DNA from: Macrostomum hystrix | Lineage: Eukaryota > Animalia > Platyhelminthes | Assembly (NCBI GenBank): GCA_950097015.1 | Contig: CATNEN010000038.1 | Span: forward strand, 31,434,001 to 31,498,000 | Reading direction: 5' to 3' | Length of the DNA: 64,000 nt | The notes under the pieces: model-generated | The model's database searches: none | The model's input: only the letters and a program-made list of their open reading frames with translations | What the model was told of the DNA's origin: nothing | In this document: in pieces, positions 1,899-64,000 of the stretch | Position numbering within the stretch: the first letter of the stretch is position 1 | How the letters are laid out: the number at the start of each line of letters is the position of its first letter | Position numbers and translations under genes: made by a program

Positions 1899-1930
<32 letters not shown>

Positions 1931-5154: not shown

Positions 5155-5189
5155 CTGCGACGAAGGAAATAATAGAAATCGTAACTCGT

Positions 5190-5640
5190 ACAGGCGAGAT
5201 TCCCGTCTAACAGGCGAGATTCCCGTCTAACAGGCGAGATTCCCGTCTAACAGGCGAGACTCCTGTCTAACAGGCGAGATTCCCGTCTAACAGGCGAGAT
5301 TCCTGTCTAACAGGTGAGATTCCTGTCTAACAGGCGAGATTCCCGTCTAACAGGTGAGATTCCTGTCTAACAGGTGAGATTCCTGTCTAACAGGTGAGAT
5401 TCCTGTCTAACAGTTGAGATTCCTGTCTAACAGGTGAGATTCACGTCTAAAAGTTAAGATTCCTGTGTAACTGATGAGATTCCTGTCTAACAGTTGAGAT
5501 TCCTGTCTAACTGATGAGATTCATGTTTAACAGGTGAGATTCCTGTCTAACAGGTTAGATTCCAGTCTAAGATATGAGATTCCAGTCTAACAGGTTAGAA
5601 TCTTGTTGAACAGGTGAGATTCCTGTCTAACAGTTGAGAT
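5190..5640. repeat. 20-bp minisatellite (CAGGYGAGATTCCYGTCTAA)
   Basis: Tandem units directly visible. Confidence 0.95.
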
Positions 5641-12702: not shown

Positions 12703-14900
12703 GGCTTTCGACAAAGTACTGAAATTAAGTTTAAAATTTTGGGCAGGTGATATATTTGAAAACGAAGAATTATCAAAAAGGAAATATTTTTTTCTAAAAT
12801 ATCATAGAATCATAGAATATTCATATTATAAATAAATAATACTTACACAGAAACATAATACATTATGCATACATTACATTATAAATCAAAATGCAATACT
12901 AATGTTTTATTTTGTTCTTATATATATTGAAGCATAATAACTAGTATACTAAGGCCATGGTATTCCTTAAGGGCATTTAAGAGAAATCAGAGACCATAGA
13001 CTATAGGCACCCTCTGATTTGCTATAAACACCCACAGAGCTCAGGGATTAAATTTACTGTGTTAAATACAAATTTGCCTCAGTAAGCCAACACAATTAAA
13101 CAATTTCAATTGTTTGAGACCTTTTCATAGCAATAATGGCTTTCAACTATCAGGAAAAAACTGGCATTAATGAATTAATCTACAATAGAGAAATAGAGAT
13201 AGATAGATAGAGAAATAGAAATGAAATAGAGAAAATAATACAACTGATACTGACTAGGACTAACAAGATTGTCAGTAGAAATAAGTAAATGGGTACAATT
13301 ATATAAAATAACCTAAGAACCTAAAGTTTGTGATTTAATATGATTCAATGTGATTCAAACTAGCTATGTTAATAAAAATGAAAACTGATTGTAGAGTCTA
13401 TATCAATCCAAAAAGATCACATTTGTCATCATAGCTAACTAGAAAAAATAAATTGATATACTTAACTTAGTTTTTTTGTTCCATAGTGGATATCTACAAT
13501 TAATTTCTGATTATTAATGTGGTTTACCAAGAAATTTGAAACACAGCTAATTTTAGCACAAACTTTCAACTCTAAACACATGCTAAAAGCCTAATGCTAC
13601 CGAAGTAGTGCGATTAGCTAAGTCAGGTTAAATATTAATGATTAAAAAGTATTCCGTAATGGTAACACAAGAGAAAAAATCGACCTCACTTGAAGTATAT
13701 TTATGCATACATTTCCTAGCACTAACGTCAGCTATAAAAGAAATCAAAGAAATGTGATTAAAATATAAACAACATTCAGTACAACAAGCAGAGCAACTTA
13801 AAAGAAAATCTAGTGGAAAATGAATTTTTTTAATAATAAGATTCACAGTACAAAGCGATTCAAAGAAACGTCCTCGCGAAAAAAACAATGCCCATAACTT
13901 TGTCACGCACGTCAGGTGGCAAGTCCTAGTCGACATCAAATAAATTTAAACTAGTGCTACGGCAGCTTTGTTTAGGGTTAAAACAACGAAAATTGTTTAT
14001 CGGTATGGAAAAGGCATTTTATTTGTTTTATTTACTTTTGAAATCTTAGCTTTAATAAATAAATTTTATTCCTCAAAGTAAGAGAATATTTTTTGTTCTG
14101 CAATACAGCGGGGCATAAATTTAACATGAAATAACTAAAATATTTTATATTTTCGCCACGTGAAAAACTTCTTTTACTGCTGGACTGGACGGTATTGTAA
14201 ATACAAATGGACACTGAAAGTCTGCGAATCACATATGAACTTGTATTTAAATATTGTTAATCTAGAGATAAAAAGTATTTAGTTTTTATAGCGAATTGAA
14301 TAGTCTTATGGCATTTTTGGTAAATTGTGAGATTATATTTATCGAATTGTCAGAACGCATAACGCCATAGCGCCTGACACTTTGCTACAAAAGCTCTACA
14401 GTAGTCTTTTTTATATTAATTTACTATTGTTTGATGGTATATCAACTTCTCGTCGCCTGGCTGCCATTTATAACTATGCTTAGGTTTTTTGTAAAATTCC
14501 AGACCAATGATTTGTACAACATATTGCTTCTTCAATTATAAAGCTTTTTGTCTGCTTGAATGTTCAAATATAAATTAATGTTTATTTAAAAAGTAGTTCG
14601 TAAGTTTTCAGTATTGGCTGGATACAATATAGCCTAAAATATTATTTTCACAATAAATTTTATTACAGCTTACCTCTTTAGTGTCTTAGGCTTGCCTTTG
14701 CTACATTTCAAGTAAAACTTTTATTATTTAATTTGGATTATATAAACTTTCTATTCTAATGAAACCTTTTAAACCTGCAATGTTTATGTAGTTTTTAATT
14801 TACAAACTACTTTAAAAGTGCAAACAGGTTTTACCTTTGCTACACTAATTCTATGGTTTAAGTTCTAGATAATATTTAATCTAATTAATGTATAATTTAG

Positions 14901-16113
14901 AATACAACACACTACAGGACTGGGTGTTACAATCGAATCAAAGATTGCCAGGCCAGTTAAGTGATGTCTCGACTTACGCAGCTAGCGAGACTTCTCTCTG
15001 CTGGTGCAGCCCGTCTGATGGCCGTCTAAAAGTACACGCGCACTTACCTGACAGACCCAAAGTTAGCGGGCTTCAGCTGATTGGCCATCGACGCCCGATA
15101 GCCTGCTTGGCTCTGACCAATCGGGTTGCGCCACGTCTTCTAGCTAGCCAGGCCGAGGATCACGTGACCCTATGGAATCTGGACGCCTGCGCGGAGAATG
15201 ACGCCCGCGGCGATCCAGTGGAGGGCTATAAGCGACTTGCCGTCGGAGCCCGAGTTGCTGACAGTCTCGCCTTCCTAGCTGATGCCCAGTACCTGGCCCT
15301 GGTCTATTCCAGGCGCGTACTTCTCCTGCCTCTGGATGACCGCAGTCATCGTCAGGATGACCGTTGTCATCGTCAGGATGACCATTCTACGGAAGGCATC
15401 TGGCTAGAAGGACATTCTACTCAGGTATGAGTCTGTTATTGTCTTATTAAAGACCCAGACACTAAGTTCTTCAGGGGCCTGAAAGCAGGAGCGCTGAGCA
15501 TCGTTGCCAAAAAAGTCCGCCTAAGTTAGTCGTTACTTTTTTAATTCTTTAACTTACTGAGAGATGTGCTGAACTGTGATAACTGATTTTGATAACTGAA
15601 AGATATACGAATTTTAGTTTTGCATAAAAAATTATTGATCATATTTCATAATTCTGTTGTTGTTCTCTGAAGAAAAAAATCGACTTTATATATAAATTAT
15701 ACGACTTTCTCAGCATATATTGACTATCCTAGGTTAATTTCGTCGGCGACTTGCCCGAAGGTCGTCTACTAACAATCTCCGACGATCGCACCTTCCAAGT
15801 TTGGCCTTGCCCGTCGAACAGTGATGACAAAGCCCTCCGACCTTGCCACCGGTCGGCTGTGCTTGGGCCGACTGCTTTAACCGCCGCTGCGGTGTCCGAG
15901 ACTGAGAGCCTGCTGTTTCTCGGATCTGCTGCGGGTCGATTGACTGTCGTGAATTTGCAGGTCGGCGGCGACTATCGAGAATTGGCCCGGTGCAGCTTGG
16001 CGGGCTCTGGCGATACGGCCGCCTCCATCGGGCGGGGGCCAGCCATCAGCGCCGAGTCTGGGGCTGCCGTGGCTGCCCTTGGATTGGCGCAGGTCTGTCT
16101 GTCTGCCTGTCTA

Positions 16114-16202
<89 letters not shown>

Positions 16203-16287
16203 ATGTCTGTCTGTCTGTCTGCCTGTCTGTCTGTCTGTCTGTCTGTCTGTCTGCCTGTCTGTCTGTCTGTCTGTCTGTCTGCCTGCC

Positions 16288-16356
<69 letters not shown>

Positions 16357-16367
16357 GCCTGTCTGCC

Positions 16368-16408
<41 letters not shown>

Positions 16409-19400
16409 GCCTGTCTGCCTGTCTGCCTGTCTCTCTGTCTGTCTGTCTGCCTGTCTGTCTGTCCTTGTGTCTGTATGTCATTGTGTCTGTCTGTCATTGT
16501 GTCTGTCTGTCTTTTCTGTATGTCTGTCTGTCCATATTTTCTCTGTCTGTCTGTCAGACAACTACCTATCTATCTGTAACCACTTGTGCAGTCCTCAAGT
16601 GGCTTCGGTCTCACCTGGTGGTGTCTCCTGGCAGTGACAGCAACCGGTCTACATCTGGTAAACGCGGCCTCGCTTCAACGCTTAAGATTCATCGCATTCG
16701 CTGATGCTCTAAAAAACAGCGGCGTCGGCAGTTTGATCTGCGAACGCGCCATCATGACGTCCTGCCACCTGAGCAGCAGTCTCCCTGTTCGAAAACGTCC
16801 GAAAGGAGAAGTAGATGACGTCGACGATGTCGAAGAGGCCTTCAATATATTTGCAGCCGATGCGAATGTCGGAAGTTCGGAAAATGGCGGTAGAATTATC
16901 AGTTTACTGTGCAGACCAACTAGTCCAGACAATGACCTGCGTGCTGGCCACGGTAACATCTTGGAGGGCTTCTCGGCAACCGCGCCACTGAATCCGGAGT
17001 CGCCATTGGCAACGGTGATGTCCCATTCATCCAAGAATGAACCGACCAGCTCGAGTAGCTCGCCTGCTAGAGCTAGAGAGACAATATTTTCCAGTGAGTG
17101 TTTCTGCACCTTAAGCAGATAGATTTATGTTTTCGTTAGGCGTATGTAAGAATTCGTTAAAAACTCCATATTGAAAAGTTTGTATAAACTAAAGGCACTA
17201 CTATTCAGTAGTAAAAAAAGAAAAATGTGAGAAAAACGTTTTTAAATATGTATCAAATAGTAAGTATACTTTTCACAAAGGCTGGGAATCGAACTCACGA
17301 CCTCTAACCATTCGGCTACAAAATACCTCAGAAAATAACATTCACAGGAGGGCTGCGGGAAGTGGAAGTGGACTCAAAGCATGCAGAGCCATCTGTGAAG
17401 GAAGGACCCGCGTTTTTTTATCTTAGCTACCCCTGATTGCGAAAAATGTAGAATTTGTGAAACGGTGTCCAATAGCTCCAACGAGACATCGTTTTTCTTC
17501 TTTGTGGTTCCCAAAAAAATGCAAAGAAATTTTGTTGCCATGCCTTTAAATGGTAAGCGAGAGAGATTTAGGCTTAAAACCTCTTTTTTGATTTTTTTAA
17601 TAAAAGGACAGCAAGAATGAGATTGTTTTTCCAAAATTAGGATTTTGGGATAAAATAGTCTGGCAGAGAAAATTCCGATAAGAACAGATACAACTAGAGA
17701 TGAAGGAAATTACAGGAAATGAGTGAGAGGAAATGACAGGAAATAAGGGAGAAGAAATGACAGGAAATAAGGGAGAGGAAATGACAGGAAATAAGGGAGA
17801 GGAAATTACAGGAAATAAGGGAGAGGAAATGACAGGAAATAAAGGAGAGGAAATGACAGGAAATGACAGGAAATAAGGGAGAGGAAATGACAGGAAATAA
17901 GGGAGAGGAAATGACAGGAAATAGGGGAGAGGAAATTACAGGAAATAGGGGAGAGGAAATTACAGGAAATGACAGGAAGTCACTTCTATTCCTTATTTGC
18001 AAAACCGTTTACCAACGTAGGCAAAACCTACGGTGGATTGAACAAGCAGGGCAAGATTGAGGCCAGTCAACCTGTGACATTTCGTAGCAAAATCAAATCG
18101 TCAGGATACGGTGTCAGGTATGTTTTGTTTGTGATCCCAATCTAAATTATGTGATTAATGCTTGGATAACAAAAATCAAATGTTCCACAAAATTAGGACT
18201 TTGGTGACCGGTAAATCCCAAAGATCCTGACCTAGATCCCTGAAATCTAGAAAAGTCCCGACTCAGGTTTCTAGGAAATTCAAAGAATCCTGACAAAAAA
18301 TCCCGAGGAATGTCCTGAAAATCCCGACATTGGCTCTAAATAGATCCCAAATATCCCGGAATATGACCCAAAAAACGCAATAATCCCTATTCCGGTCCGT
18401 AGAAAATCCCAAAAGATAAAGACTTAGATCGCAAAAATTCCGAAATTAAAAAAAAAGTTATAAAAATCCCGACTTAGTTCCCCTAGAAATCCCAAAGATC
18501 TGGATATTTATCCCATTAAAACTTGAAATATCCCGGTTTGAATAAATCAGGAGCTCAAATCCAAAATTCAAAATCCAAAGTCGAAGTTCCGGTAAAATCC
18601 TAAAAAGGATTCCACAGTTACTATGTCCTGATCCCAATTTTCCATCTTGGTTTAGCTCCGCCGGCTCTGCAAAGCCGTCAAACTTCAAAAGGCAGGCGCC
18701 AATGAAGCCGCCTTCGATTACAACGTCGTCTTTGTCGTCAGCTTCGGCAACAAAAGTTGGCGCTCTTCACCAGCTTCTGCTACGACAGGCCGGCGCCAAC
18801 GCCGACTCCTCGATGCCACCGTCGCGCATCTCTGCGTCGATTCGTCCGACAGACGCCGGCGCCAGTCATTCGGTGTCGCGCCTGCGCGTCCTTCCCGCCT
18901 GCCGACCCGGCGGTCTCGTCCTCTGCGGCGCCGCCAACGGTGCGGCCTACCTACTGGAGGGAGCCAATCCTGGAGGGTCGGGCTTGGTCGAACGCCGCAA
19001 CGGGCCTCAGCTGGCTGCGGGCGGAGTTGGCGGTGGCGGCATCGGCGGCAGTCCGGTCGCCTGCGACTGCAGCCTCAATGGCGACCGTCTGCTGACTGCC
19101 AACGCTGATGGCACCTGTCGAATGTGGAATTTAGCCACCGGTCGGCAACTGTTTGAAGTGACCGAACAGTTAAAAGCTGTTGCGTCAAAGAAAACTGGGC
19201 ATTGTAAGCAGAGGTTGCAACCTCTATGAAAACAATCATAAAAATATTTGTGGGAGAGCTGCGGACATTGGCACATCATTTGGTGACAGTAGTCCAGCAG
19301 CCAGCGAGGAGGCAATTCTGCCCATTTCGCTGACTAAAGTTCTGTATACCTGCCCTGACTTTCTCATTGTCAGGCAAGGCAAACTTTCACTGTGCCATGA

Positions 19401-21527
19401 AGTTTGGGCCTTAAGGGCGTAAATTGTACGACAGGCCCCTAAGTCTTCAGTTGTGCTTCAGTTTTAGCTGAAGAATCAGAGGATTCAGGTAGTTGTGCTT
19501 CAGTTTCAGCTGAAGAATCGGAGGATTCAGGTAGTTGTGCTTCAGTTTCAGCTGAAGAATCGGAGGATTCAGGTAGTTGTGCTTCAGTTTCAGCTGAAGA
19601 ATCAGAGGATTCAGGTAGTTGTGCTTCAGTTTCAGCTGAAGAATCAGAGGATTCAGGTAGTTGTGTTTCAGTTTTAGCTGAAGAATCAGAGGATTCAGGT
19701 AGTTGTGCTTCAGTTTCAGCTGAAGAATCAGAGGATTCAGGTAGTTGTGTTTCAGTTTCAGCTGAAGAATCGGAGGATTCAGGTAGTTGTGTTTCAGTTT
19801 TAGCTGAAGAATCAGAGGATTCAGGTAGTTGTGTTTCAGTTTTAGATCAAGAATCGGAGGATTCAGGTAGTTGTGCTTCAGTTTCAGCTGAAGAATCAGA
19901 GGATTCAGGTAGTTGTGCTTCAGTTTCAGCTGAAGAATCAGAGGATTCAGGTAGTTGTGTTTCAGTTTTAGCTGAAGAATCAGAGGATTCAGGTAGTTGT
20001 GCTTCAGTTTCAGCTGAAGAATCAGAGGATTCAGGTAGTTGTGCTTCAGTTTCAGCTGAAGAATCAGAGGATTCAGGTAGTTGTGTTTCAGTTTCAGCTA
20101 AAGAATCAGAAGATTCAGGTAGTTGTGCTTCAGTTTCAGCTGAAGAATCAGAGGATTCAGGTAGTTGTGTTTCAGTTTCAGCTGAAGAATCAGAGGATTC
20201 AGGTAGTTGTGTTTCAGTTTCAGCTGAAGAATCAGAGGATTCAGGTAGTTTTGTTTCAGTTTTAGATGAAGAATCAGAGGATTCAGGTAGTTGTGCTTCA
20301 GTTTCAGCTGAAGAATCAGAGGATTCAGGTAGTTGTGCTTCAGTTTCAGCTGAAGAATCAGAGGATTCAGGTAGTTTTGTTTCAGTTTCAGCTGAAGAAT
20401 CAGAGGATTCAGGTAGTTGTGTTTCAGTTTCAGCTGAAGAATCGGAGGATTCAGCTAGTTATGCTCCAGCATCGTCACCTCCTCAACCCGCAGCATCGGC
20501 CAGTCAGCAGCTGCGGAATCGGCAGTCGGAGCTTACTCACGCGCAGTTCTACTTTCTGGACAAATTTATTATTCTAGCCCTGGGTAATAGGATTCGCCTG
20601 TGCGTCTATCGCCTCACCTCCGGCTCCGAGAAGCGAGACGACGTCAAGACCTACAACGCGACGGGTGGTCGATGCAAGCTGGCGCACTGCATCGAGGTCC
20701 CCGAGTGCCAGCAGGTGACAGCCTGCAGCGCGTTGAATTCCGCGCACTCCTATAGAATCCTGGCCGCCTGCTCTGATCGCGTTGTTCGATTGTTCGATTT
20801 GAATTCGCGCCAACCGAACTGCTTGGCAACCTACGCCGAGGCTGACGACTCCTCGACAACATCCTATGCGGCCCTCGCCGGTGCCGGGTGGACATTCTTG
20901 ACTGTGGCGAAGGGCGGCCCAGTGAAGCTGTGGGATCTGCGAGTTGGCACTGGGTGAGTCTGGTTGGGAGATAAATTCGGTATTTTTAATTAGAGGCGCG
21001 TGTGAAATCCCATGTCTTTCTCATGAGCCACTCTCATATATTTCTCATCAGCCACTCTCATATCTTTCTCATTAGCCACTCTCATATCTTTCTCATCAGC
21101 CACTCTCATATGTTTCTCATCAGCCACTCTCATATATTTCTCATCAGCCACTCTCATATCTTTCTCATGAGCCACTCTCATATGTTTCTCATCAGCCACT
21201 CTCATATGTTTCTCATCGGCCACTTCTTCATCCCGAACCGAAGTCTCCCCGCGCGGTTCCCGCAGTCCGGTATCAGCCACCCACCTCCGCGTCAGCGGCT
21301 CCGTCCGCTCCGGCCTCAGTCTTCGCGCCGGCTGCGGCGACGCCTCCGACGGCTTCGCCTGCGGCGCCGAAGATCGTCGGGCTCTATTCTACGATGCCAG
21401 AAATCTTAGCCGGCCAGTCGGCGAGGTGACCGGCTTCACCGACTGTGTAACAGCCATCGACTGTCGATCGGACACCGGCGTCTGCGTTGTCGGCACCAAT
21501 GACGGATCTGTCTGCCTGCTGGACTGA
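14901..21527 (+). CDS. WDR27: WD repeat-containing protein 27-like (start codon unresolved)
   Basis: Phase-consistent exons 14901-15424, 15733-16092, 16592-17093, 18021-18117, 18656-19203, 20470-20953, 21266-21527. WD motifs plus WDR27-type segments QPVTFRSKIKSSGY, AQFYFLDKFIIL..DDVKTY, FACGAEDR. Confidence 0.85.
16093..16560. repeat. (GTCT)n microsatellite filling a WDR27 intron
   Basis: Begins exactly at the donor CAG|GTCTGT. Confidence 0.97.
17700..17978. repeat. 24-bp purine-rich minisatellite (GGGAGAGGAAATGACAGGAAATAA)
   Basis: Tandem units visible. Confidence 0.93.
19245..19440 (-). mobile_element. SINE family A, partial copy
   Basis: Reverse-complement match to the SINE A 3' half. 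Confidence 0.75.
19445..20465. repeat. 39-bp minisatellite (CAGCTGAAGAATCAGAGGATTCAGGTAGTTGTGCTTCAGTTT-like)
   Basis: About 26 tandem units ending at the acceptor of a WDR27 exon. Confidence 0.96.
21015..21225. repeat. 27-bp minisatellite (TCTCATCAGCCACTCTCATAT..)
   Basis: Tandem units in the last WDR27 intron. Confidence 0.92.
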
Positions 21528-21710: not shown

Positions 21711-22511
21711 CTTTAAGTACAAACTGCAACAAATCTTTATTTAAACCTTCGATCAAGACAAAGGTTTTTTATTTCGAAAAAACATGAATACTTTCATGAT
21801 GCCATCTGAGTGCGCGTTCTCTGTTTGTAAGAAAAGAATAAAACGATTCGAGAAAATTTTTGCCTAATAGTTTAGCCTAAAAGAATAAAACTTTCAAAAG
21901 TCTAAGACTTTTAACAGAAGCAAGAATAGTGCAAATTTTATACCTTTAAATGTTTATAATGAACTTTCAGGGCACCCATTTTCGTACTAGTTTAAAAAAT
22001 CGTACAGTTAAAAAACTGCAAGTGTGATTAAACAAGAAATTTTTATTAATTGCTTTGCGAAACTTGCTTCAAAAAAGCAGTATATTGTTGCTTGCCTTGC
22101 CAATGAACTTTTTAAAGTAAAATAAAAAGAGGAATTATAACAAAAATAGAATTTAATTGCTCATTCCTGTGCTTTCTCTTTTGTTTTATCGCCATCAATT
22201 CAGCGTCATTTAAATCGTCTTATGAACTACTCGTAGATTGCACAAAATTTGTATAATATTTCTCTTGTAGTATTTTATTCGCGTGCGTAAAAAGAAGTTT
22301 TTTTATAAAATCACAAAGATTTTTTATATTAAATTTGAATCACGTTAAACCTAAATTTCTACGGACAAGCAAAAAATTTCCGGAAAAACGTTAGGGCAAG
22401 TAAAAGATTTCAGGTCTTATCTCTGCAGTTGGCAAATTTATTATTTGAACATTGCCCTTAATATTTACTCCAATTATCCTGTTTTCTCTGTTCAAAGTTT
22501 AATTTTCAGTT

Positions 22512-22873
22512 CTAGCCAAGCGGACATGCGCGATGGTCGTAGAGCCGGCATCTTTTGCTCATCAGAATCTCCATCGCGGCTTCAAACCATCTCGGCCCCT
22601 GCTGCACCGTCTGGTCGAGCCGAGGCGTTGTTGCTTCCGTTTGAGAAACCGTCTTTGACTTCGTAGCTAGAATTTCTGAAAGTTGAAAATGGAATGAAAC
22701 ATGAGTCTAATAATCTTAAACATTTTAGAAAGAATAAAACAAAAAAACGCACTGATTTGATTTTTTTTATCCAACAGCAGATCATTCTTGTTTCCGATAC
22801 TCATCGATCTAGTTGATAGTGGCAACAGCAGAATTGCAGCACTGAGTAGTAGGAAGCGAATTTTAATCGACAT
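22512..22873 (-). CDS. Neuropeptide-like prepropeptide B (91 aa; predicted mature CRLYDHRACPLG)
   Basis: Exon 22873-22753 (MSIKIRFLLLSAAILLLPLSTRS.. signal-like; donor A|gtgcgt), 86-bp phase-1 intron, exon 22666-22512 ending ..EILMSKR-CRLYDHRACPLG-stop. Confidence 0.88.
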
Positions 22874-22953
22874 ATTTAAACGCGATCTAGCCGAAAAGGC
22901 GAAAAATTCTTCCTCGATTCTCCACAGCTTATTTCCCGGTGTGTTGCGAATGA

Positions 22954-22960
22954 TTTTATA
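22954..22960 (-). promoter_or_regulatory. Candidate TATA box of prepropeptide B
   Basis: TATAAAA about 80 bp upstream of the ATG; the paralog has one at a similar position. Confidence 0.45.
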
Positions 22961-23572
22961 GACAAATTTTTCCGTTTTTTTGCTAATTTGAGAACACAAG
23001 CGGATTTTTCTGCTCATTGGCTGGAAAACATTTCTTAAATAACCTAGCTTCGTTGCTCCTTCATGTGGTTGGCAGTCTTCTCTTTTTGAGGCAATTTTTG
23101 TCTCCATTTTCAAACGCGCCAAATGAGGCGATGGGTCCGTGTGGACCCCTTAGAAATAGGAAGCCTAAAATTGTTTGTTCTGCTCACTCAATGTTAAAGA
23201 AATAAGAAACAGGATTGCTATTTTTCTTCCATTTGCGACTGCAGCTAACGAAAGTCACAATTATTTGGAAGTGAAATGAGTTTTGCTATTGTCACAAACC
23301 GAAACCGGTTTTCGCGAGTTAGCGTAAGTTATTTTAAATTAACAAAATTCAAATTTTTCAAACCAAAAAGTTGACGGAGCTTTGTTGACAGCACTTTGGT
23401 TAAGACTTAACAGAAGTTGGTAAAAGTACTATTTATGTACTAAAATCAATAAAATATAATTAATTTACTAGATGACGAAAAAATAAGATTTACTAAAATT
23501 AGATTTTGTAAGCGCGCTTAACATGGTGTTGGATGATATTTTTGTTAGCTTTTCGTTTTAAATGTTTCCAAT

Positions 23573-24145
23573 CTAGCCAACCGGACAGGCCCGGTGGTCG
23601 TACATGCGGCAGCGTTTATCGATGCTTTCTAGAAGTTCCGTGTCTGTCAGCTCCTGCAGTGTTTCATAACCATCACCTGCTGGCAAGGTTGAAAAGATTT
23701 CAAGATTTGAAAGGCGCCGTTTGCCTCCAGCTCAGCAACAAAGATCCTGAGCTCGATCCCGCGGCGAGGTCACTTTAATTTGGGGCGCAGCCGCGGAGAG
23801 AAGGCTTTGGGGGCTTATCGTGCAATTTACGCCCTTAAGGGTCAACCTTTATGGCACAGTGAGAGTGTACACTGACTGACGATGAGAAAGTCAGGGCAGA
23901 TGTCATGTCTTTATTGTGTGCTCAGGAAGTCAGCGGTTCCACTTCCACTGTTATGAATGTGCCATTGCCCACAGCCCTCCAGCAAATATTAAAACAAGCA
24001 TTTTTAGCAGCTCAATAAACGCATCTTCCTCACCTACAGCAGCAGTGTCTGGCAGGGCTTCTTCGTTGGCAGTCAACGGCAAGCCAGACAAAGTTGATGC
24101 CAGTAAAATGTTTAATAACACTGTTAGCAAGAGATGTTGATCCAT
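23573..24145 (-). CDS. Neuropeptide-like prepropeptide A (71-72 aa; predicted mature CRMYDHRACPVG)
   Basis: Exon 24145-24034 (MDQHLLLTVLLNILLASTLSG.. signal-like; donor G|gtgagg), phase-1 intron, exon 23679(or 23676)-23573: (A)GDGYETLQELTDTELLESIDKR-CRMYDHRACPVG-stop. Confidence 0.9.
23715..23990 (+). mobile_element. SINE family A copy inside the intron of prepropeptide A
   Basis: CCTGAGCTCGATCC..GGGGCGCAGCCGCGGAGAG..GAGAAAGTCAGGGCAG..CAGCCCTCC matches the copy at 31303-31660. Confidence 0.8.
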
Positions 24146-24207
24146 TCTTGAATCTTGTCGCTAAGAGAGTGTGTGCGAATCTGTCTTCTGCTTTCTATTT
24201 TCGCGCC

Positions 24208-24215
24208 TTTATATA
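24208..24215 (-). promoter_or_regulatory. Candidate TATA box of prepropeptide A
   Basis: TATATAAA about 63 bp upstream of the ATG. Confidence 0.5.
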
Positions 24216-25140: not shown

Positions 25141-27887
25141 CGAAGGCCTCTCAGAGGCAATCCACGCACACAGTACTAGATGTTTTGAGATACCTATTTT
25201 TTTATATATAGTACGATCGACCAAATTTTCGGCCAAAGCTGGGCCTTCTTCAGGGTCTGTAGATTTAGATAAATCAAACGAATAAATATTGTTAAAGCGA
25301 CCGTATTGATTTTAAAGTTGGAATTGTACTTAAAAAATTATAAACGAACACGGGCACGTTAAAAATAAAACTGTCAATGCCGCGTGCAGTCAGAGTCCTG
25401 TCAAAGGTTAAAGCGAATTAATTGTTATTTATGGGGGTAGCTTGGATGGACATAGAATGTCCTTCAGAGAGCGTGAGCGTGTGTACGCTGCCACTGTGCT
25501 CAAGTCACTGCATCATTGTTTGGACTATATTTTATTATGAAATCCATTTTTTTTTCAGTTTCAATGCTGGGAAAACCTGGAAAATAAAATTTAACTTAGC
25601 GCGGGCACACTGGCATGGTCAGCCATAACCGAACGGATTTCGTGTACAATGCGTCCAGAGTGGTCCATTACGGTTCATCGCACTACGGTTAGTGTCAATG
25701 GAGTTCAGGCCAGCTGGGGTCTGAGTTTTCAGGAGATTAGTGAGTCTGAGTTCCATGTCTCTTCTCCTGCGTTGAGTTGCCTCTCTGTGCGTCTCACATT
25801 CAGGGCTGAGGTACCAAAGACCCATGAACCGTAAGTCCAGCAGGCTGTGGTCTGTAGAGCGAAAATGTCTTGAGACCGGGTATCTTTTGCCAGTCTAATG
25901 TCGCTCAGGTGGGCTTGTAGTCGGACTTTAAGGTACCCTCCTGTCTCTCCAATGTAGACACAAAGGTCATTACAGCTCCTGCATAAGATTGAGTACACAA
26001 CGTTTCTAGAGTCGCAACAGACTTTCTGGCAGATCCTATATACCATGTTGGTAGAGTTGGATCCTGGACAGATCTGTCCAAAATGGCCATGTTGTCTACA
26101 CACCCGACAGGTTTCATTATTGCAGTTGTGGAAGCCAAAATCCCACTGGCGGTCGATGAAGAAACCCAGTTGGATGAGAGCGGAGTATTTGGCGTTCCGA
26201 ATAGAGCGAATAGAGCGGACAGAATGTCCGCTTGTTTCTTAAGGATGCCCATTAGGCTAGAGCTGGCTCGGTCAAAGTCTTGCTTGTGTGTACAGCGACG
26301 GGCATAGCGTAGAAATTGGGATTTTAAAGTACATTTAAAGGTGTGCTTCGGGTGGAAGGAGTCAGGATTAAGCAAGTGGCGAGAATCAGTCGGCTTAACT
26401 TGAAGTAGATGGAAGTCGTTAGAACCTTCATATTGCCCACTTCGGTGAGGGATACACAGCAGTCAAGGAAGTTGACACATTCTTTACTCGTTCAAATGTT
26501 GGTAGAGTTGCTTTAGTTGAGTTCTGTGCCCGAAGAAACCATGAAAATGTCGTCGATATAGCGTCTGTACAGACGTGGAGTGAAAGGGGCATTTGCCAAT
26601 GCCCTGGATTCCCAGTCGGACATGAAAATATTTGCATAGGAGGGAGCGAAAGTCTTCCCCATGCTGGTGCCCTTGATTTGCAAGAAGCGACAGTTATTAA
26701 AAACGAAATCATTCTGGTTAAGATTAATATCTTGAAAGGAGTCTGAGCAGTTGACGGTCCAGGGGAATGGCGCAGGGAAATTGTTGAACGCCTCACTGAA
26801 AACGGTCATCCCCTTGTCCGTTGGAATGTTGGTGTACAGGGATTCAACATCTAACGTGACCAGGAAGACGGACTCGTGAATGTTGAACGATAAGTCGTTG
26901 ATAATAGCTTGGAAATGGTCGGTCGGTGTCACGGATATAGGAATCCTGCTCTCTCGCAATAGGTTGTAGAAAATAATCAATGAATTTCGCGCTCATGTAG
27001 CTCTCCGAACTGCAGTCCGAGACAATGGGCCTGCGAGGCGGAATGCCGGGAACGGGCCAGGTAGCAGGGTCCTTGTGGACTTTAGGGAGCAGGTAGAAGA
27101 TCCTGTCCCTGGGTTCCAAGGGAGGAATTAACTGAGTAAACTGCTGGTTGCTGACTATCTTATCCCTACGGAGTTCTTGAAAGATTTCCCTAATCACAGA
27201 ACTTGTTCTACTTCTAGAGGCAGAATCGACAGGTCGGTAAAAGTCTGTGTTGGAGAATCAAGAACAACCATGTTGCTGCCTTTGTCCGCTGGTTTGATGA
27301 CAATGCTGCGGTTGTTTTTCGGCTGGTTGCATGTTGGTTCTGTTGAAAGCAGTACTAGGAACAGGAATGTTATCGAGAGCTGCAAACAAAGTCTGGTGTG
27401 AATGCCACTTTTCAAGGCCAATGTTCGGGACGTGAGTGCGGTTTGGAGTAAAGAAACGAGGTGCATAACTACAGGTGCGGCGTTGCATCAGCGAGTTCAA
27501 AGCAATCCTCTATTTGAGATTCGCAATGGAGTCTCAGAAGACGCTCGATCCCACACGAGTTGGGGCAGGAACAAAGTTTTTTCCTTTTTCCAAAACTCTA
27601 AGCTCGCTAACATTGAGGGTGCGGCTCGAAAGATTAATAACCAGACTGCCTTCGGCCATGATAGAGAGATCTAGCTTTTTTGGTGCTTTCTGAGAGCAAG
27701 CTGGAGGGCGCTCAGGCAGGATTCATCGGTCAACGAAACTAAGACGTTTTTCGGACGTTGTCAGGTGCATCGGCATGAGTGACAAAGTCAAGTGTATAAA
27801 CACTTGCGTTAGGGAATGCCTTGCGACAGTGGTTGACGATTGTCGTTAGCTGTTTGTCAAGAACACCTTCAAATTGTCTTGTCTTCA
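25141..27887 (-). mobile_element. Penelope-like retroelement (RT + GIY-YIG), frameshifted and probably 5'-truncated
   Basis: IVIKPADKG, FYLLPKVHK, RPIVS, LDVESLYTNIP, QIKGTSMG..APSYANIFM, YRRYIDDIF, S.HP, NVVYSILC..C..YIGET, spread over several frames. Confidence 0.93.
25219..25257 (-). ncRNA. Minimal type-I hammerhead ribozyme in the PLE 3' terminal region
   Basis: GACC-CUGAAGA-A-GGCC-cagcuuu-GGCC-GAAA-AUUU-GGUC: stem I GACC/GGUC, stem II GGCC/GGCC, palindromic AAAUUU in place of stem III. Confidence 0.8.
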
Positions 27888-28080
27888 GATAGATAGATAG
27901 ATAGATAGGAAGACACTAAAAACAGACACTAAATTGACTACTAGTGGGTCGAGTAGCACGTTGAGCATTCGTCACTTCGTTTTGCGTCAAATGGCGGATA
28001 TGCTTCTTAATTGTATACATTTAAACCCTAAAAAGTTCTGGCGAAACTAGATATTTTTATAAAACATAGCCAGCATAACA

Positions 28081-29812
28081 ATGCAACCACATCAGAACAA
28101 GTCCCTGTTAATTGCAGCCCTGTGCTTGGCAGTCGGTGCCATAGCAGCTGCCGCTGTTTTTCTGTTCATCTGGATGCTGCAGAAATGGCGAAACAGGAAG
28201 CAACAGCAGCAGGGGCAGGCTGAAGCGCAAAAGCTGAAGCCAATAGTTGTCCACACTGTCCAGTTTCCAAGACATCTGCCGACATTGAATTTAGTTCATT
28301 GTGAAGAACAGCAGCAGCAGGAGCAGCAGCAGCAGCAGCTAGATCTGAAGCCCCAACTAAATCCCTGCGACCAGGACAGCTACCAACTTTTGGAAGAATT
28401 CGGACTTGTTGAAGCATGCTGCGAGACTGAGAGAGTCTGGCTGACCCTGCGTGAGTTGCTCTTGGATTGAGCTTAAGCATCCTCTCCCGTGTCTCATCTC
28501 TCCCGTGTCTCATCACTCCCGTGTCTCAACTCTCCCGTGTCTCATCTCTCCCGTGTCTCATCTCTCCCGTGTCTTAACTATCCCGTGTCTCATCTCTCCC
28601 GTGTCTCATCTCTCCTGAGTCTCATCTCTCCTGTGTCTCATCTCTCCCGTGTCTCATCTCTGTCGTGTCTCATCTCTCCTGAGTCTCATCTCCCCTGAGT
28701 CTCATTTTCCCATGCCTCAACTCTCCCCTTTCTTACCTCACTCGCGTTCTTTCTTTCCTATTTTTATCTCGCCCAGACAGGGAATTAAGAGACTAAATCT
28801 AAAATAATTTTTTTGATTTATTTACTCGTTAATCACTCGTCGAGCATCTATTTGTTTAGGTTCAAATGGAGCCGCTACAACTTCGTCACGTGATCAGTCA
28901 GTTCAGCGGCGCCTCAGCCAATCAGCGAAGCCCTGCAAAACACCCAGAGCACTAATTGGCTTGTCATCCATAGATAACGGACGCGAACTTCGGTGTCACC
29001 TGCTGAGATTTGAAGCTCCGGTATCTGACAACAGCCCGACTGTTGACATTGAATTACATGCAAGTTGGTGGCAGCCGGCTCGCGACATGGCTCGGTGGAT
29101 TCTGGCATCGAGGCCCCAGACATCCTGCTTCCACGCAGATAGAAGAAACGGTTGCTGCTTTAGCTTGGTTCGACATGCGTCAAGCGTACAGGCAATCCCG
29201 GTAATTCTACTCCGAATCGAAGCTAAAGTGCCCGCTGCAGATCATAGCTGTGTACTTCTAGTACCTTGGTCCTGTCTGAACATTGATGGTAGCACCAGGT
29301 GGCAAAGGCTACAATGGCGCCATCTAATCACGACATTCTCGTCCAGTTTTGTCAATGACAATCCAATTTGCATTGTCAACTGTAGATTAGCATTGATTGC
29401 ATCGGCAAACATGATGATACTAGTGAGAGGCGCTGAACTATTCAAACCCCTCAGTAAGAAACAGAAGTCCCCCTGCCTGGTATTCCGGGTCGACTGGTCG
29501 AGAAATAGCAACTACGTTAAAAGCGATCAATTGCAAACGAATTATCGCAACTGTTGCAAGGTAACTTCGAATTTAAACAGTCAGTTTGAATTGCGGTTGA
29601 CGGAAAATCTGCAAGTTGATTGTAATAAAGTTAATTGGTTTGAATCAGTTAGCGTCGTATTGAGCCTTGTACTGAAATCGAATGCAACTTCAACCTTGAA
29701 GGCTGACCGAGTTCTGGCTGTGGTACAGTTGAATGGTAGTATTTGGCGCAGATGTCTAACTGAAGATGCCATCGAAGTCGCCCTGGTGATGATACACGCG
29801 GCGGCAGAATAA
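28081..29812 (+). CDS. Single-pass membrane protein of unknown function
   Basis: Exon 28081-28450 (N-terminal TM, basic residues, polyQ; donor C|gtgagt) joins in phase 1 to exon 28860-29812. AATAAA overlaps the stop. Confidence 0.65.
28483..28705. repeat. 16-bp minisatellite (TCTCTCCCGTGTCTCA)
   Basis: Tandem units within the intron. Confidence 0.92.
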
Positions 29813-30896: not shown

Positions 30897-33775
30897 TCAG
30901 CGGAACAGTGCGCTGTAGTACTGGTTGAACAGGTTCTGCTCAGCGCCGGCAGAGGCGGAGCAGTCGACAGCGTCTCCGTTGGCCGGCTTGCAAAGTCGGC
31001 GATAGCCCAGCGCTCTCGGACCATAGAGCTCGGCAGCGCAGCACTGACTCGGTGGACAGTCGCCGTTCACCGTGCAGGCGTCACCATTCTGACCGCCGCC
31101 GCCGCCGCCGCTGCCGCTGCCGCCTCCGCCGATGACGACGTTCTTGATGCTGTACTCGTCTGGCTCAGTCAATAGGCGGGCCTTGGTTGGCGTACAGCGG
31201 CCGAAAGCGGCTAAAAATAAGATTCGGTTAGGTTGTGTGCCAAGAGGAATAGTGCGAATGCGATAAAGCAAACTGGTACTACTTATAGTAACGAGCATGT
31301 TGGGGGTCGGTGGCTAAGCGGTTAACGCGTTTGCCTCTCGCACCAAGGTCCCTGAGCTCGATTCTGTGGTGATGCCACATTCATTTGGGGCGCAGCCGCT
31401 GAGAGAAGGCTTGGAGGCTTGTCGTGCAATTGACGCCCATGAGGGCCAACCTCCAAGGCACAGTGAGAGTGTACACTGTCTGATGACGAGAAAGTCAGAG
31501 CAGATGTACACACCTGTGTGAGCGTGTGTCTGCGTTCGGTATCTGAGTGTGCTCAGGAGTCAGCAGAATAGGCAGAATTGCCTCCTCGCTGGCTGCGGGT
31601 CCAGTGTCACCAAATGGTGTGCCGTTTCCCGCAGCCCTCCTTCAAACATTATTAGTATTATTAACGAGCATATATTAATAAAAAAGCAAATTTCCTAATG
31701 TAAATTATCCGGAATTTCAATTTCCGAAATACACGAAATCTAAAATTTACTGTTCTGAAAATTCCCTATACAACTGAAATTTGTCTTTAAGGAAGAAAAC
31801 ATTTATATAGCAGAAAATTTGTGGTTAATTCAGGCTTAAAAAACAACAGTTTTCTTCCAACGCCAATAAGGATTGCCGCACAAACTCGTTCATGCGAGAA
31901 ACTCACTGCAGTTTTAGTTTTCCGTTTTGTTTAAATAATACAAGAAATTTTCAACTTTCGGCAATTTTTTAACCGCATCCTCTTAAATGCTTGGCTGGCG
32001 TGACAGTTGTAGGGCTTCGGTTATGCATTGAGCTACTCTCGCGTAACTTTTGTTTACCGACTGGTCTGCTTCATTCATCGCAAGGGGACGTCAGTGGCCT
32101 GTGGCCTGAGATTCAACAGAGAATGGAACGAGAGGCCGAGATGGAAAGAATGACGATGGAAACCCTGCCCGAGCTAGGAATGGAGGACGTGGATGAACTT
32201 CTGAAGGTATACGAAGACTCTGCCATTGAGAATTTGGTTCAGGAGATGGATAAAGATAGCAGTAAAAATATAATCGACAAGTGGAAAACTGTCTATCTGA
32301 CTATCTACCAATTGCGACGTTATTCTTGTTACTGTAATACATTTTCATGCCGAGAGCATCCGTAATTGTGGTCCTCATTTGCCGCCTATATTTGTCTGTG
32401 TTTATGCCATGTTTGTTACACAATCAATAGTGCAAATATATATGTCAGAAACGCGTGACTGCTTCCTCACGCAGAGAAAAGACAACTTTGTGCCATAGAC
32501 AAAACGTGAGTCGCAGAATTCATTAATGACCACTGAGAGCGGTTTTAAATTGCTATTAGAGGTCAAACTATTTAATTATTCGATTTCGATACTCATTTGT
32601 TATAATGATGAGTTTTTCGCGCTTAAATGTCACTTTAATTAGTTTTCGCTTCGTTACTCCGGCAACGTAGGTTTTTAAGTAGCTAAATTTGTGTGAGATG
32701 ATTATATTTGCGATGGAAAGGAACGATCTAAAAGAATCTAATAATCTGCTTCTGCATCATAAAACTTGCCATCCTCGTCTTCGTTATTACAACGACTACA
32801 TTTTTTTTGTTTTATCAGAGTTACCACTTTGAGGAATTCCCCAATATTCAGGGATTTACTACCCTGAGGAATTCCCCATTTTCAGAGAGTTACCACTCTG
32901 AGGGATTCCCCATTTTCAGAGAGTTACCACTTTGAGGGATTCCCCAATATTCAGGGATTTACTACCCTGAGGGATTCCCCATTTTCAGAGAGTTACCACT
33001 CTGAGGGATTCCCCATTTTCAGAGAGTTACCACTCTGAGGGATTCCCCATTTTCAGAGAGTTACCACCCTGAGGGATTCCCCATTTTCAGAGAGTTACCA
33101 CCCTGAGGGATTCCTCATTTTCAGAGAGTTACCACTCTGAGGGATTCCCCATTTTCAGAGAGTTACCACCCTGAGGGATTCCACAATTTTCAGAGAGTTA
33201 CCATTTTGAGGGATTCCCCATTTTCAGCTAGTTACCACTTTGAGGGATTCCCCATATTCAAGGAGTTACCACTCTGAGGGATTCCCCATTTTCTGAGAGT
33301 AACCACCCTGAGGAATTCCTTATTTTCTGAGAGTTACTACCCTGAGGAATTCCCCATTTTCAGAGAGTTACCACTTTGAGGGATTCCCCATATTCAAGGA
33401 GTTACCACTCTGAGGGATTCCCCATTTTCAGAGAGTTACCACTTTGAGGGATTCCCCATATTCAAGGAGTTACCACTCTGAGGGATTCCCCATTTTCAGA
33501 GAGTTACCACTCTGAGGGATCGCCCATATTTAGGGAATTATACCACTCTGTTGGATTTCCCATTCTTTTGGATTTCTCACCACAAGATTTTCTAGTCTTG
33601 AAATATTTTCTATTCTGCTCTAGACTGCTTCACACCTTAGGGATACATGACACAATGTTGGTCGCTAGTTCCACTTCAGAGACCGAGGCAAGAACTCACC
33701 CTGGCTAGCCTTCTGGCAGCTGTAATCAGCGCAACAGGCGTCTTCGGTGTAGCACAACCCGCCGTCTCGTTCGCA
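30897..33775 (-). CDS. Cys-rich, probably secreted protein (knottin-like + colipase/prokineticin-like Cys patterns); 5' end unresolved
   Basis: Exon 33775-33700 CERDGGLCYTEDACCADYSCQKASQ (donor G|gtgagt) joins in phase 1 to exon 31210-30897 AAFGRCTP..GQNGDACTVNGDCPPSQCC..RLCKP..DC. Confidence 0.7.
31303..31660 (+). mobile_element. SINE family A, most complete copy (tRNA-derived head)
   Basis: A-box-like TGGCTAAGCGG, B-box-like GAGCTCGATTC, structured body, ATT-rich tail; five copies in the window. Confidence 0.82.
32815..33560. repeat. 35-bp minisatellite (TCAGAGAGTTACCACTCTGAGGGATTCCCCATTTT)
   Basis: Tandem units visible. Confidence 0.95.
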
Positions 33776-36826: not shown

Positions 36827-38884
36827 ATGAACCAAAGGCAACTAAAGCGAAGTATTAATGAAATTGAAGCTAAAATAAAAGACCAAGAGAAACATATAGA
36901 AAATTCATTGTCTCAACAAATTTACTATTTATACCCACTTCAAGATGAATCATCTAGTGGCATTTGTTTGTCAGATATTGATATTGACATTGACAAGATT
37001 TTGAGCAACTTTGTCTTAGAAGAGTTTTCTAATAATGGTCTTCACCTTATTGAGGTGGAAGATACTTCTGATGTTGACCATTTTGAACATGAAGACACAT
37101 TGCTACAACATTTTGTAGACATTACAAAAGAATTTTTATCAGACTTATCAGAAAGGTCAGAGTCTTATGACAAAGTCCAAAGTAGCTTCAAAGATGACTT
37201 GGCTGCATGGGTTGTTGAAGCCAAAGTGAGTCAAGTACATATTACGTCTTTACTGCATCTACATGCTAAACATTTTCCAAATTTGGATCTTCCATTGACA
37301 GCATCAACATTGTTGGCTCATAGCACTAATGCAAAGTCATATTACTGTTCTAAAGATATCTATTATGTTGGTGTACAGTCTGCAATTGAATCTATAATAG
37401 ATAATTCTTTATCAAGCATACATACCAAATCTAATCAGTTGACTCTATTCCTAAATATTGATGGAATCAGTTTTTTCAAAAGTTCTGGCTACCAGTGCTG
37501 GCCTATTCTTGGTTTTGTTCCTGAATTACAATCTGAACCTTTTGTCATCCAGTTCTATTATTCAAGAGATAAGCCAAATCCCAAACAACTGTGTTCTGAA
37601 CTGATTAAAGAATTGAATCATCTAATTTCAAGTGGATTTGATTATTGTGGTCATCATTATGCAATTTTAACAAAGGCAATAATTTGTGATGCACCAGCTA
37701 GGTGCTTATTGAAGTGCACTAAGTATCCAACTGGTTATCATAGTTGTGACAAATGTAAAGTAGAAGGTACTCGATGTGAGGAAAGAAGTTGCATTGTCTT
37801 TGATGAAGTTAATGCTGATCTACGAACTGATCTTGAATTTCGACTGCAAATTGATGAGGATCACCATAATGAAGCCAATGGATTATCACCATTTCTTGAA
37901 TTAAATTCAATTGACATGGTTGCATCATTTCCACTTGATGTTCTTCATGTGGCATATCTTGGTGTTATGAGAAGGATGATGTATTTCTGGATAAAAGAGG
38001 GCCCATACAAGGTCCGAATGCCAAGTCAGGCTATTAAGACTTTATCTGCCAATTTAGTTTCATTAAAATCACATGTCCCATCAGAATTTTGCCGAAAGCC
38101 ACGAGGGCTTAATGAGCTTTGCTATTGGAAAGGAGCTGAATTCCGATCATTTATTCTCTATTATGGAATCATTGTTTTAAATGATGCTAGTATTCCAAAG
38201 GACATTTATCCTCATTTTCTATACTTTCACATTGCAATGCATCTTCTTTGTGGTAAATCTGCAATGCTAAGTGTAAATGTTGTTGCTGCAACCAATCTGC
38301 TAAAAGAATTTGTTACAAAGTCATCTGGATTGTATGGACGTGGATTTGTCTCAAACATAGTTCATTCTCTGATTCATTTGCCAAATGACTGTGAAAAATT
38401 TGGTGCAGTAGATGCATTTTCTGCTTTTCGATTTGAAAGTTTTTTGCAGATTCTAAAGAACAGACTATGCAGTGGTAATCAAGTGATTGCTCAACTGAGA
38501 AATCGGACTGGTGAATATTTGATGACAAAAAGGTCCAGGGCTGAGCTTGCCGTACCATCTCACAAGAGTACAATAAGAGTTAACAGCAGAGATTGTTTTA
38601 TTATCACAAGGACTCTTCAAGTCTGTCTTGTTACTGAAGTTTTGCCTGCTAAGTTCAAGGTGATGGAATTTACACAGAAAGAAGATTTTTATTCCTATCC
38701 AATAAAAAGTTCAGCTGTAGGAATATTTTTTGTCAAAGATGGCTGTTTTGGAGCACCATTCGATGTCACTGATGATTGCATATTGGACAAGGCTTGCGGT
38801 TTTCCTGTAAAGAAAGGATATGTTATCATTCCTCTTCGCCTTGACTTTCCAGATTCACATGGAGAAAAATTGGCTTGTTGTTAG
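36827..38884 (+). CDS. EnSpm/CACTA-like transposase (685 aa ORF)
   Basis: NIDG..KSS..WPIL, ICDAPAR..K..GY.SC.KC, FPLD.LH...LGV, RKPRGL..WK..EFR, H.LIHL..D..FG..SAF.FES motifs; no internal stops. Confidence 0.88.
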   Translation: MNQRQLKRSINEIEAKIKDQEKHIENSLSQQIYYLYPLQDESSSGICLSDIDIDIDKILSNFVLEEFSNNGLHLIEVEDTSDVDHFEHEDTLLQHFVDITKEFLSDLSERSESYDKVQSSFKDDLAAWVVEAKVSQVHITSLLHLHAKHFPNLDLPLTASTLLAHSTNAKSYYCSKDIYYVGVQSAIESIIDNSLSSIHTKSNQLTLFLNIDGISFFKSSGYQCWPILGFVPELQSEPFVIQFYYSRDKPNPKQLCSELIKELNHLISSGFDYCGHHYAILTKAIICDAPARCLLKCTKYPTGYHSCDKCKVEGTRCEERSCIVFDEVNADLRTDLEFRLQIDEDHHNEANGLSPFLELNSIDMVASFPLDVLHVAYLGVMRRMMYFWIKEGPYKVRMPSQAIKTLSANLVSLKSHVPSEFCRKPRGLNELCYWKGAEFRSFILYYGIIVLNDASIPKDIYPHFLYFHIAMHLLCGKSAMLSVNVVAATNLLKEFVTKSSGLYGRGFVSNIVHSLIHLPNDCEKFGAVDAFSAFRFESFLQILKNRLCSGNQVIAQLRNRTGEYLMTKRSRAELAVPSHKSTIRVNSRDCFIITRTLQVCLVTEVLPAKFKVMEFTQKEDFYSYPIKSSAVGIFFVKDGCFGAPFDVTDDCILDKACGFPVKKGYVIIPLRLDFPDSHGEKLACC

Positions 38885-41544: not shown

Positions 41545-41670
41545 TAAGAAATCGGTGAATTCTAAGAAAGTGGCGAATCCGAATAAATCGGTGAATTCTA
41601 AGAAATTGGCGAATCCGAATAAATCGGTGAATTCTAAGAAAGTGGCGAATTCTAAGAAATTAGCGAAATT
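41545..41670. repeat. ~18-bp minisatellite (TAAGAAATCGGTGAATTC) interrupted by the transposon; left part at 36060-36110
   Basis: Same unit on both sides of the element. Confidence 0.88.
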
Positions 41671-63605: not shown

Positions 63606-63669
63606 TTAGTTCAACTGCTTTCCGTTGCAGCATCTGTTGATACTGGCTTCAGGTCCACACGTAGTCGGT

Positions 63670-63702
<33 letters not shown>

Positions 63703-63942
63703 AACTGACGATCTGTTATGCAAGTCATCTCTGACAGTACAGTATGCAGAGCGGTGAATGCGGCGATCATTGCGGTTGAGCCAAAGCCGTGTGTAATGAG
63801 GCTAAAGTTGTTTAACTGTTGTCGCAGTTTTGATTCAGCTGGCAACTGTTGCAAAATCGCACTGCTGGCATCTGACTGTTGAGCATTGGTAGCCAAACTG
63901 ACTTGAGTGTTCAACAGGTCGATCATGTTTTGCAGAAGAGAT
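63606..63942 (-). CDS. TFAP2: Transcription factor AP-2 family, last coding exon
   Basis: QLNNFSLITHGFGSTAMIAAFTALHTVLSE matches the AP-2 helix-span-helix FSLITHGFG motif; acceptor ttttacag before 63942. Confidence 0.88.
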
Positions 63943-64000
63943 CTGTAAAAAGGATGGAATACAATTTCAGACCATTTCTCTTTTCTTTCAGAATCATGCA

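Follow-up and report, generated by a model that had tools for sequence, protein, structure and literature searches.

The window considered here, i.e., the whole stretch of DNA analysed, comprises 64,000 nucleotides of the flatworm Macrostomum hystrix (assembly GCA_950097015.1, contig CATNEN010000038.1, positions 31,434,001 to 31,498,000 of the forward strand). Two adjacent genes on its minus strand, here named A and B, are predicted to encode short precursors ending in near-identical peptides with two cysteines. Judged from the DNA, they would represent a lineage-restricted, apparently undescribed family of cyclic neuropeptide-like molecules. With a probability of about 0.6 we read A and B as tandem prohormone genes, each releasing a single disulfide-closed, likely amidated neuropeptide or hormone of 11 residues, from a family not described so far.

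Two related, predicted cyclic peptides under selection

When all six frames of the window were scanned, peptide A was found at 23611-23576 and peptide B at 22550-22515 (both minus strand), each directly between a Lys-Arg (KR) dibasic site and a stop codon, exactly where the first-pass annotation had placed the two 12-mers. Both contain two cysteines that would close a C-x7-C ring with Tyr and His inside it, followed by the tail P-[V/L]-G; the net charge is +1 and the peptides are not amphipathic-cationic. The dibasic KR site, the conserved peptide and a terminal Gly as candidate amide donor are thus present in both precursors. The pattern dibasic-C-x(4-10)-C-x(0-4)-G-stop matches the window twice, at peptides A and B, while 40 local shuffles gave on average 0.075 matches and never two. 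No third copy of the peptide with at least five matching residues was found in the window.

Across the 14 codons that encode KR and the peptide, five codons differ silently between A and B (6 bases) and two differ in the residue encoded (M/L and V/L; 3 bases), against approximately 10 synonymous and 32 non-synonymous sites. The excess of silent change is significant (Fisher p = 0.0025; counting a base of the ATG/CTC pair as silent lowers it to 0.00014). The earlier count of five synonymous and two conservative differences, and its reading as a signature of purifying selection, are therefore borne out. So is the statement that the signal and spacer regions cannot be aligned: the parts preceding KR align at chance level (equalled by 766 of 2000 shuffles, and by 478 of 2000 for the signal regions), whereas none of 2000 shuffles scores as well as the alignment of KR plus peptide. 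At the nucleotide level, the best local alignment of the two gene regions covers the end of the peptide exon and a few bases of the 3' untranslated region (UTR), with a score of 48 compared to 35 for the best of 200 shuffles. As the likeness is limited to the peptide end, the duplication must be old enough to have erased everything else. These comparisons support the proposal that A and B are genuine paralogues encoding precursors, and that selection concentrates on the two-cysteine peptide released at KR.

According to work on cone-snail prey peptides (bioRxiv 2022.08.05.502922), a conserved mature part next to a freely changing spacer is characteristic of signalling precursors, while in toxins the mature part diverges fastest. 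Conservation confined to the peptide, together with the excess of silent change, fits a signalling precursor rather than a toxin. The ending peptide-Gly-stop is not unusual in flatworms, being found in eight of the 51 planarian prohormones (own count, PMC2953531 Table S5), and a single two-cysteine peptide at the precursor C-terminus after a dibasic site is described for somatostatin-like precursors, MCH and the starfish precursor Arnp24 (sections of PMC4772807 and PMC9048919).

By established prohormone biochemistry, each precursor would enter the endoplasmic reticulum by means of its hydrophobic segment, a disulfide bond between Cys1 and Cys9 of the peptide would form a ring of nine residues, a PC2-type convertase would cut after KR, and PHM/PAL would turn the last Gly into an amide, yielding the 11-residue peptide C-R-[M/L]-Y-D-H-R-A-C-P-[V/L]-NH2. 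The calculated [M+H]+ of these cyclic amides is 1347.587 (A) and 1343.646 (B), compared with 1405.592 and 1401.651 if the cyclic 12-mers keep a free acid end. The mature peptide might then be released by neurons and act on a G-protein-coupled receptor, likely one common to both peptides. Genes A and B could provide one and the same signal, each in its own cells or at its own time. Near-identical ligands combined with promoters that cannot be aligned suggest a single receptor supplied by two cell populations.

Gene B and its transcripts

Gene B comprises the following features:

22753..22873, minus strand, coding exon 1 (ATG at 22873, then a basic n-region and a hydrophobic segment; phase-1 donor seen in a spliced contig)
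22676..22752, minus strand, intron of 77 nt, GT..AG (joint 22675/22753 in one X3 contig)
22512..22675, minus strand, coding exon 2 (spacer, KR at 22556-22551, peptide at 22550-22515, stop)
22423..22511, minus strand, 3' UTR (AATAAA at 22442-22437; contig ends)
22874..23287, minus strand, upstream region with contig cover (three short upstream open reading frames (ORFs), ATGs at 23107 and 23017, TATA-like word at 22960, polypyrimidine-AG at 23150 and 22888)

The precursor read from ATG 22873 has 94 residues, with KK at position 36 and KR at 81, and its spacer has a net charge of +2, i.e., it is not acidic. The 11-residue hydropathy reaches 3.0 in gene B and 2.8 in gene A, in both cases within the first 17 residues, and small-residue (-3,-1) sites follow; the signal-like start is clear in gene A, whereas in gene B in-frame ATGs also exist further upstream in the covered region.

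Evidence of transcription comes from contigs of four (X1-X4) of five public runs listed from two studies, the kind of which is not recorded as RNA. Part of gene B is covered in all four. One X3 contig (777 letters, no mismatches) skips 22676-22752 with 242 letters on the shorter side, an X2 contig corresponds to the unspliced gene, and an X4 contig keeps part of the intron. The 3' ends at 22478, 22468, 22434 and 22423, from the four runs, cluster near AATAAA. Contigs bounded on both sides, with 3' ends clustered in this way, fit an origin from RNA. Gene B is spliced and apparently polyadenylated. Of the junction proposed by the first-pass annotation, 22753/22666, the donor is the one used, whereas the acceptor lies 9 nt upstream, at 22675, in the same frame. 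The X1 contig begins at this very acceptor and carries one silent change at 22620.

At the 5' side, contigs from one study start at 23239 (X2), 23287 (X3) and 23243 (X4), approximately 0.4 kb 5' of ATG 22873. Because this cover passes the TATA-like word at 22960 and includes the in-frame ATGs at 23107 and 23017, the gene B product may have a different N-terminus. For the same reason the single architecture that had been proposed for both genes holds in part: phase-1 intron, spacer, KR, 12-mer and stop are shared, while the promoters may differ in layout. Two readings of the upstream region remain that leave ATG 22873 in place, namely a second, more 5' transcription start with a long leader, or an outron that spliced-leader trans-splicing takes off at the polypyrimidine-AG lying 14 nt 5' of the ATG; in Macrostomum lignano, 30% of the genes are trans-spliced (PMC8629364). 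Under these two readings, as under the longer product considered below, the peptide would still enter the secretory lumen. Pfam contained no family matching the upstream extension.

The open frame 22874-23152 (minus strand) begins exactly at the polypyrimidine-AG 23150-23149 in phase 1, which is also the phase of the gene A donor. A joint from exon 1A to 23150-23149 would be in frame; none was seen in the contigs. Splicing of exon 1A to exon 2B (both phase 1) was considered as well, the model being the calcitonin/CGRP-like pattern. It was rejected: such a joint is absent among the eight joints listed, and a spliced first exon of its own is present in gene B.

Gene A

Gene A is predicted to consist of:

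24208..24215, minus strand, TATA-like box 70 nt 5' of the ATG (TATA-like words at 24215/24213; putative function, from sequence only)
24034..24145, minus strand, coding exon 1 (ATG at 24145, signal-peptide-like hydrophobic stretch, first part of the acidic spacer, phase-1 donor)
23680..24033, minus strand, intron of 354 nt, GT..AG (predicted from sequence; alternative end 23677)
23746..23991, strand not assigned, high-copy dispersed repeat within the intron (contig depth in thousands, many diverged copies)
23573..23679, minus strand, coding exon 2 (acidic spacer, KR at 23617-23612, peptide at 23611-23576, stop)

The acceptor lies in a tandem CAGCAG, so that predicted exon starts at 23679 (precursor of 72 residues) and 23676 (71 residues) are equally possible. 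The 72-residue precursor has a single dibasic site and a spacer with a net charge of -10, and an in-frame stop is located five codons 5' of the ATG. Further copies of the intronic repeat are found at 31351-31507, 19350-19442, 1435-1559 and 2149-2210, with 80-95% identity between copies. Rfam has no match for the repeat, which is possibly a short interspersed element or a miniature inverted-repeat transposable element.

Search for relatives

Neither peptide could be linked to a described sequence in the collections searched, which did not include a second Macrostomum genome. Exon 2 of gene B yielded no candidate among proteins of 29-93 residues, and the two-exon alignment gave 41 candidates among proteins of 94-2000 residues, none with E <= 10. 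A phmmer search over 1.84 billion representatives returned one match, a repeat protein aligned with the spacer only, which was rejected. Against PDB, the exon 2A query produced six matches (E 0.57-7.2), none over the motif, and the profile query produced none. In Pfam no family was found for either exon 2 or for exon 1B, and exon 1A had one sub-threshold, signal-like match. The pattern occurred at 103 loci of the metagenomes scanned; none of the 102 translated matches was preceded by a dibasic site, and they were set aside as chance occurrences. Viral contigs contained no match to the pattern. An AlphaFold model of exon 2B was uninformative (mean predicted local distance difference test 61, predicted template modelling score 0.27).

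The literature texts searched for words from the peptide sequences gave no match. The supplement of PMC8557429, which runs to 3.9 million characters and returned a control word 54 times, contains neither YDHR nor ACPLG nor ACPVG; HRAC is shown in one place, among insulin entries. None of the 51 prohormones of S. mediterranea (PMC2953531 Table S5) resembles the peptides, nor does any of the 46 readable of 47 listed peptides of S. mansoni match (by-eye decoding of the primer tables in PMC10783048 Table S1). Small-ring cyclic peptides are absent from these 51 planarian prohormones, and the schistosome list holds one CCAP-like peptide and one with four cysteines. No described flatworm npp or spp list that was compared contains a match. 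The 2009 survey by McVeigh is said to have drawn on Macrostomum data. This survey (McVeigh 2009), Koziol 2016 and the polyclad list of PMC10396302 lie outside the comparison. Since a motif of 12 residues is weak as a query, and since short precursors are probably often omitted from gene sets, the negative results do not show that the peptides are confined to one species.

Weighing the alternatives

Several observations count against A and B being working genes for a new cyclic neuropeptide. No relative is found outside the window, and the evidence of conservation consists of two paralogues compared over 14 codons. Gene A exons are uncovered by contigs in all four runs, which is not counted as silence as the runs are not recorded as RNA. 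The frame of gene B is open for 92 codons 5' of ATG 22873, an extent reached by 107 of 5000 shuffles that keep its composition and by 20 of 5000 shuffles of the wider region (post-hoc comparison); the product may accordingly have 142 or 172 residues, with the hydrophobic stretch acting as a signal anchor. The X1 contig (different organism label, depth 11) lacks 2 nt at 22646, and the resulting frameshift would lead to a 70-residue product without the peptide. A null allele, a compensated change or an error may explain the loss, and the three other runs carry gene B without it. A and B are read as candidate neuropeptide genes.

An exocrine role is the first alternative: the prohormone-like precursor could yield a seminal-fluid signal, a pheromone or a defence peptide acting on another worm or on microbes. 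Signal, acidic spacer, KR and a small disulfide peptide form the layout of many gland peptides, and the spacer of gene A, with its charge of -10, conforms to it. Frog skin peptides and conotoxins are gland peptides with such precursors. Tandem duplication and the lack of a homologue elsewhere would also suit this explanation. It is nevertheless unlikely, as the mature part is the conserved one, unlike in toxins (relevant part of bioRxiv 2022.08.05.502922), the charge of the peptide is only +1 and the gene B spacer is not acidic (+2). Two further readings were set aside: a Bowman-Birk loop, for want of the cis-Pro loop motif, and an antimicrobial peptide, on account of the +1 charge.

A strongly diverged CCHamide/excitatory-peptide (EP) or elevenin member, shifted to the end of its precursor, is a quite unlikely explanation. 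Counted from the first cysteine, C-x-x-Y-x-H agrees with the CCHamides, and two of the 49 EP/CCHamide precursors listed in PMC6617912 Additional file 1 have a ring of seven (by eye). The 49 include no flatworm, and the receptors of elevenin and CCHamide are related (section of PMC5818035). However, the EP/CCHamide peptide sits at or a few residues behind the signal peptide, whereas that of A and B is terminal; the second cysteine is followed by GG or GA instead of P-[V/L]; and His precedes this cysteine by two residues rather than three. Elevenin has eight residues between its cysteines, and its conserved D, F, P, R and G, as given in the corresponding part of PMC10175484, are absent or displaced in A and B.

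Membership in the somatostatin/allatostatin-C (AstC)/MCH group is very unlikely despite the similar precursor plan discussed below. As described in the part of PMC9048919 concerned, the ring of protostome AstC is always six and that of SSRP-like peptides four with WK, as opposed to seven without WK here, and AstC/SSRP genes carry a phase-0 intron in the pro-region, while the intron of A and B is in phase 1. In MCH, Met or Ile directly follows the first cysteine, a place taken by Arg in A and B, with Met/Leu one place later. The invertebrate MCHs described in that portion of PMC4772807 are from deuterostomes.

The first-pass annotation had left two options, a rearranged vasopressin/oxytocin (VP/OT)-type system or a separate family, and the latter proves to be the better one. 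For the former, a VP/OT-type gene would have lost neurophysin and enlarged its ring. The terminal C-P-[L/V]-G recalls oxytocin, divergent vasotocin paralogues are known from nemerteans, and M. lignano is reported, in a section of PMC8896804, without a clear VP/OT receptor orthologue, which would point to an unusual system. In VP/OT precursors, as outlined in PMC4772807, the signal peptide is followed by a C-x4-C peptide that ends in P-x-G-G and a dibasic site, and then by neurophysin. Against this plan, the ring of A and B is seven instead of four, the peptide stands at the C-terminus instead of the N-terminus, and neurophysin is absent, with a stop directly after the peptide and no Pfam match for either exon 2; the divergent nemertean paralogues retain neurophysin. 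Amidation would moreover consume the Gly of the oxytocin-like tail. The CPxG likeness vanishes at this step because C-P-x-G-G-K-R of VP/OT keeps its first Gly, whereas the present sequence is C-P-x-G-stop. Finally, a separate vasopressin-like precursor of the ordinary type, which includes neurophysin and a C-x4-C-P-P-G-G-K-K-R peptide, is present in M. lignano (PMC8557429 supplement), and four accessions of this species for a VP/OT-type precursor are named in the relevant part of PMC8896804. Derivation from a VP/OT gene is on these grounds highly improbable.

That one or both genes are decaying copies no longer yielding a peptide is hardly credible, for although gene A has no RNA cover and a repeat in its intron, and one gene B contig shows the 2-nt loss, both frames are intact in the window, silent changes are in excess and the three other runs lack that loss.

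Neighbouring genes

Elsewhere in the window, the following genes, elements and reading frames were noted:

323-5226, minus strand, ionotropic glutamate-receptor-like gene (Pfam Lig_chan, Lig_chan-Glu_bd) with long minisatellite introns
14885-21000, plus strand, multi-exon WD40-repeat gene, convergent with gene B and ending approximately 1.4 kb below it
25500-27720, minus strand, broken reverse-transcriptase element (Pfam RVT_1 at 26516-26992, frameshifts, then a GIY-YIG-like stretch by eye), suggested to be, and here presumed, of Penelope type
36827-40430, plus strand, weak matches to Plavaka-transposase/DUF4218 and DUF4806 in long ORFs that probably belong to a DNA transposon
44720-45052, minus strand, exon of an Arf-like GTPase
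50366-50602, minus strand, exon of a UBL3-like ubiquitin-fold protein
54609-57982, minus strand, exons of a gene resembling cyclin-dependent kinases, with a long tail of low complexity
63609-63998, minus strand, exon of an AP-2 transcription factor
28063-28467 (plus), 30900-31313 (minus) and 41655-42050 (minus), unassigned short ORFs, hydrophobic or Cys-rich in part, with no Pfam match above threshold, possible exons of secreted or membrane proteins

The kinase gene (54.7-58.0 kb) is 83%, 80% and 59% identical to a Macrostomum lignano UniRef protein over three exon blocks. These values suggest a Macrostomum species that is probably not M. lignano, unless the protein matched is a paralogue.

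Significance

If the cyclic ligand is new, it would offer a direct handle on the orphan peptide receptors of flatworms. Should its receptor fall in a bilaterian clade, a gap in neuropeptide evolution would be filled; should the peptide be confined to one genus, it would be one more lineage-specific neuropeptide, mainly of interest to flatworm neurobiologists. Lineage-specific prohormones are common in flatworms. In either case, prohormones of less than 100 residues are still absent from protein collections. Macrostomum is tractable (RNA interference, transgenics) and belongs to a flatworm group that branched off early and retains peptide systems which planarians and parasites have lost.

A much wider interpretation, which we regard as improbable, is that A and B are founding members of a ring-hormone family spread across free-living flatworms or the wider Spiralia, serving as ligand of an orphan receptor of the MCH/somatostatin or the CCHamide/elevenin clade. 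Such a family would have been missed because its precursors are shorter than 100 residues. One paralogue would be a classical prohormone and the other membrane-anchored, and in the extreme case the peptide would be the first MCH-like one of a protostome; this extended version is likewise a long shot.

Comparison with known peptide systems

The peptides share single features with several known systems. Like A and B, VP/OT peptides including platytocin (by its description in PMC8896804) have one ring starting from residue 1 and Pro right after the second cysteine, but their amide is on Gly, whereas that of A and B is predicted on Val or Leu. CCHamide/EP peptides share with A and B two cysteines, a ring that contains His and an aromatic residue, and a predicted amide; their precursors, as described in part of PMC6617912, hold a single copy followed by a long C-terminal propeptide, which A and B lack. 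Elevenin resembles A and B in its one disulfide and in a first part of the ring that contains Arg as well as an aromatic residue; the peptides of A and B differ from it by a ring of seven instead of eight, by the lack of D before the cysteine, of F-x-P and of C-R-G, and by the position in the precursor (part of PMC10175484).

In the layout of the precursor, AstC/SSRP and MCH come close, as they too have a single two-cysteine peptide ending a short precursor after a dibasic site (sections of PMC4772807 and PMC9048919). MCH further shares a basic residue two positions before the second cysteine (Arg in A and B). Unlike the precursors of MCH, SSRP and AstC, those of A and B are predicted to give amidated products. 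The starfish orphan Arnp24, likened here by its description in a part of PMC4772807 and not by sequence, also has a short precursor and a C-terminal two-cysteine peptide with terminal Gly, but its peptide has 14 residues and is followed by a second dibasic site. As peptide orthology often becomes visible only via the receptors (section of PMC5818035), A and B may have a hidden kinship with one of these families. While membership in any of the families compared is not shown, A and B would behave like a single-copy neuropeptide precursor with a C-terminal disulfide ring.

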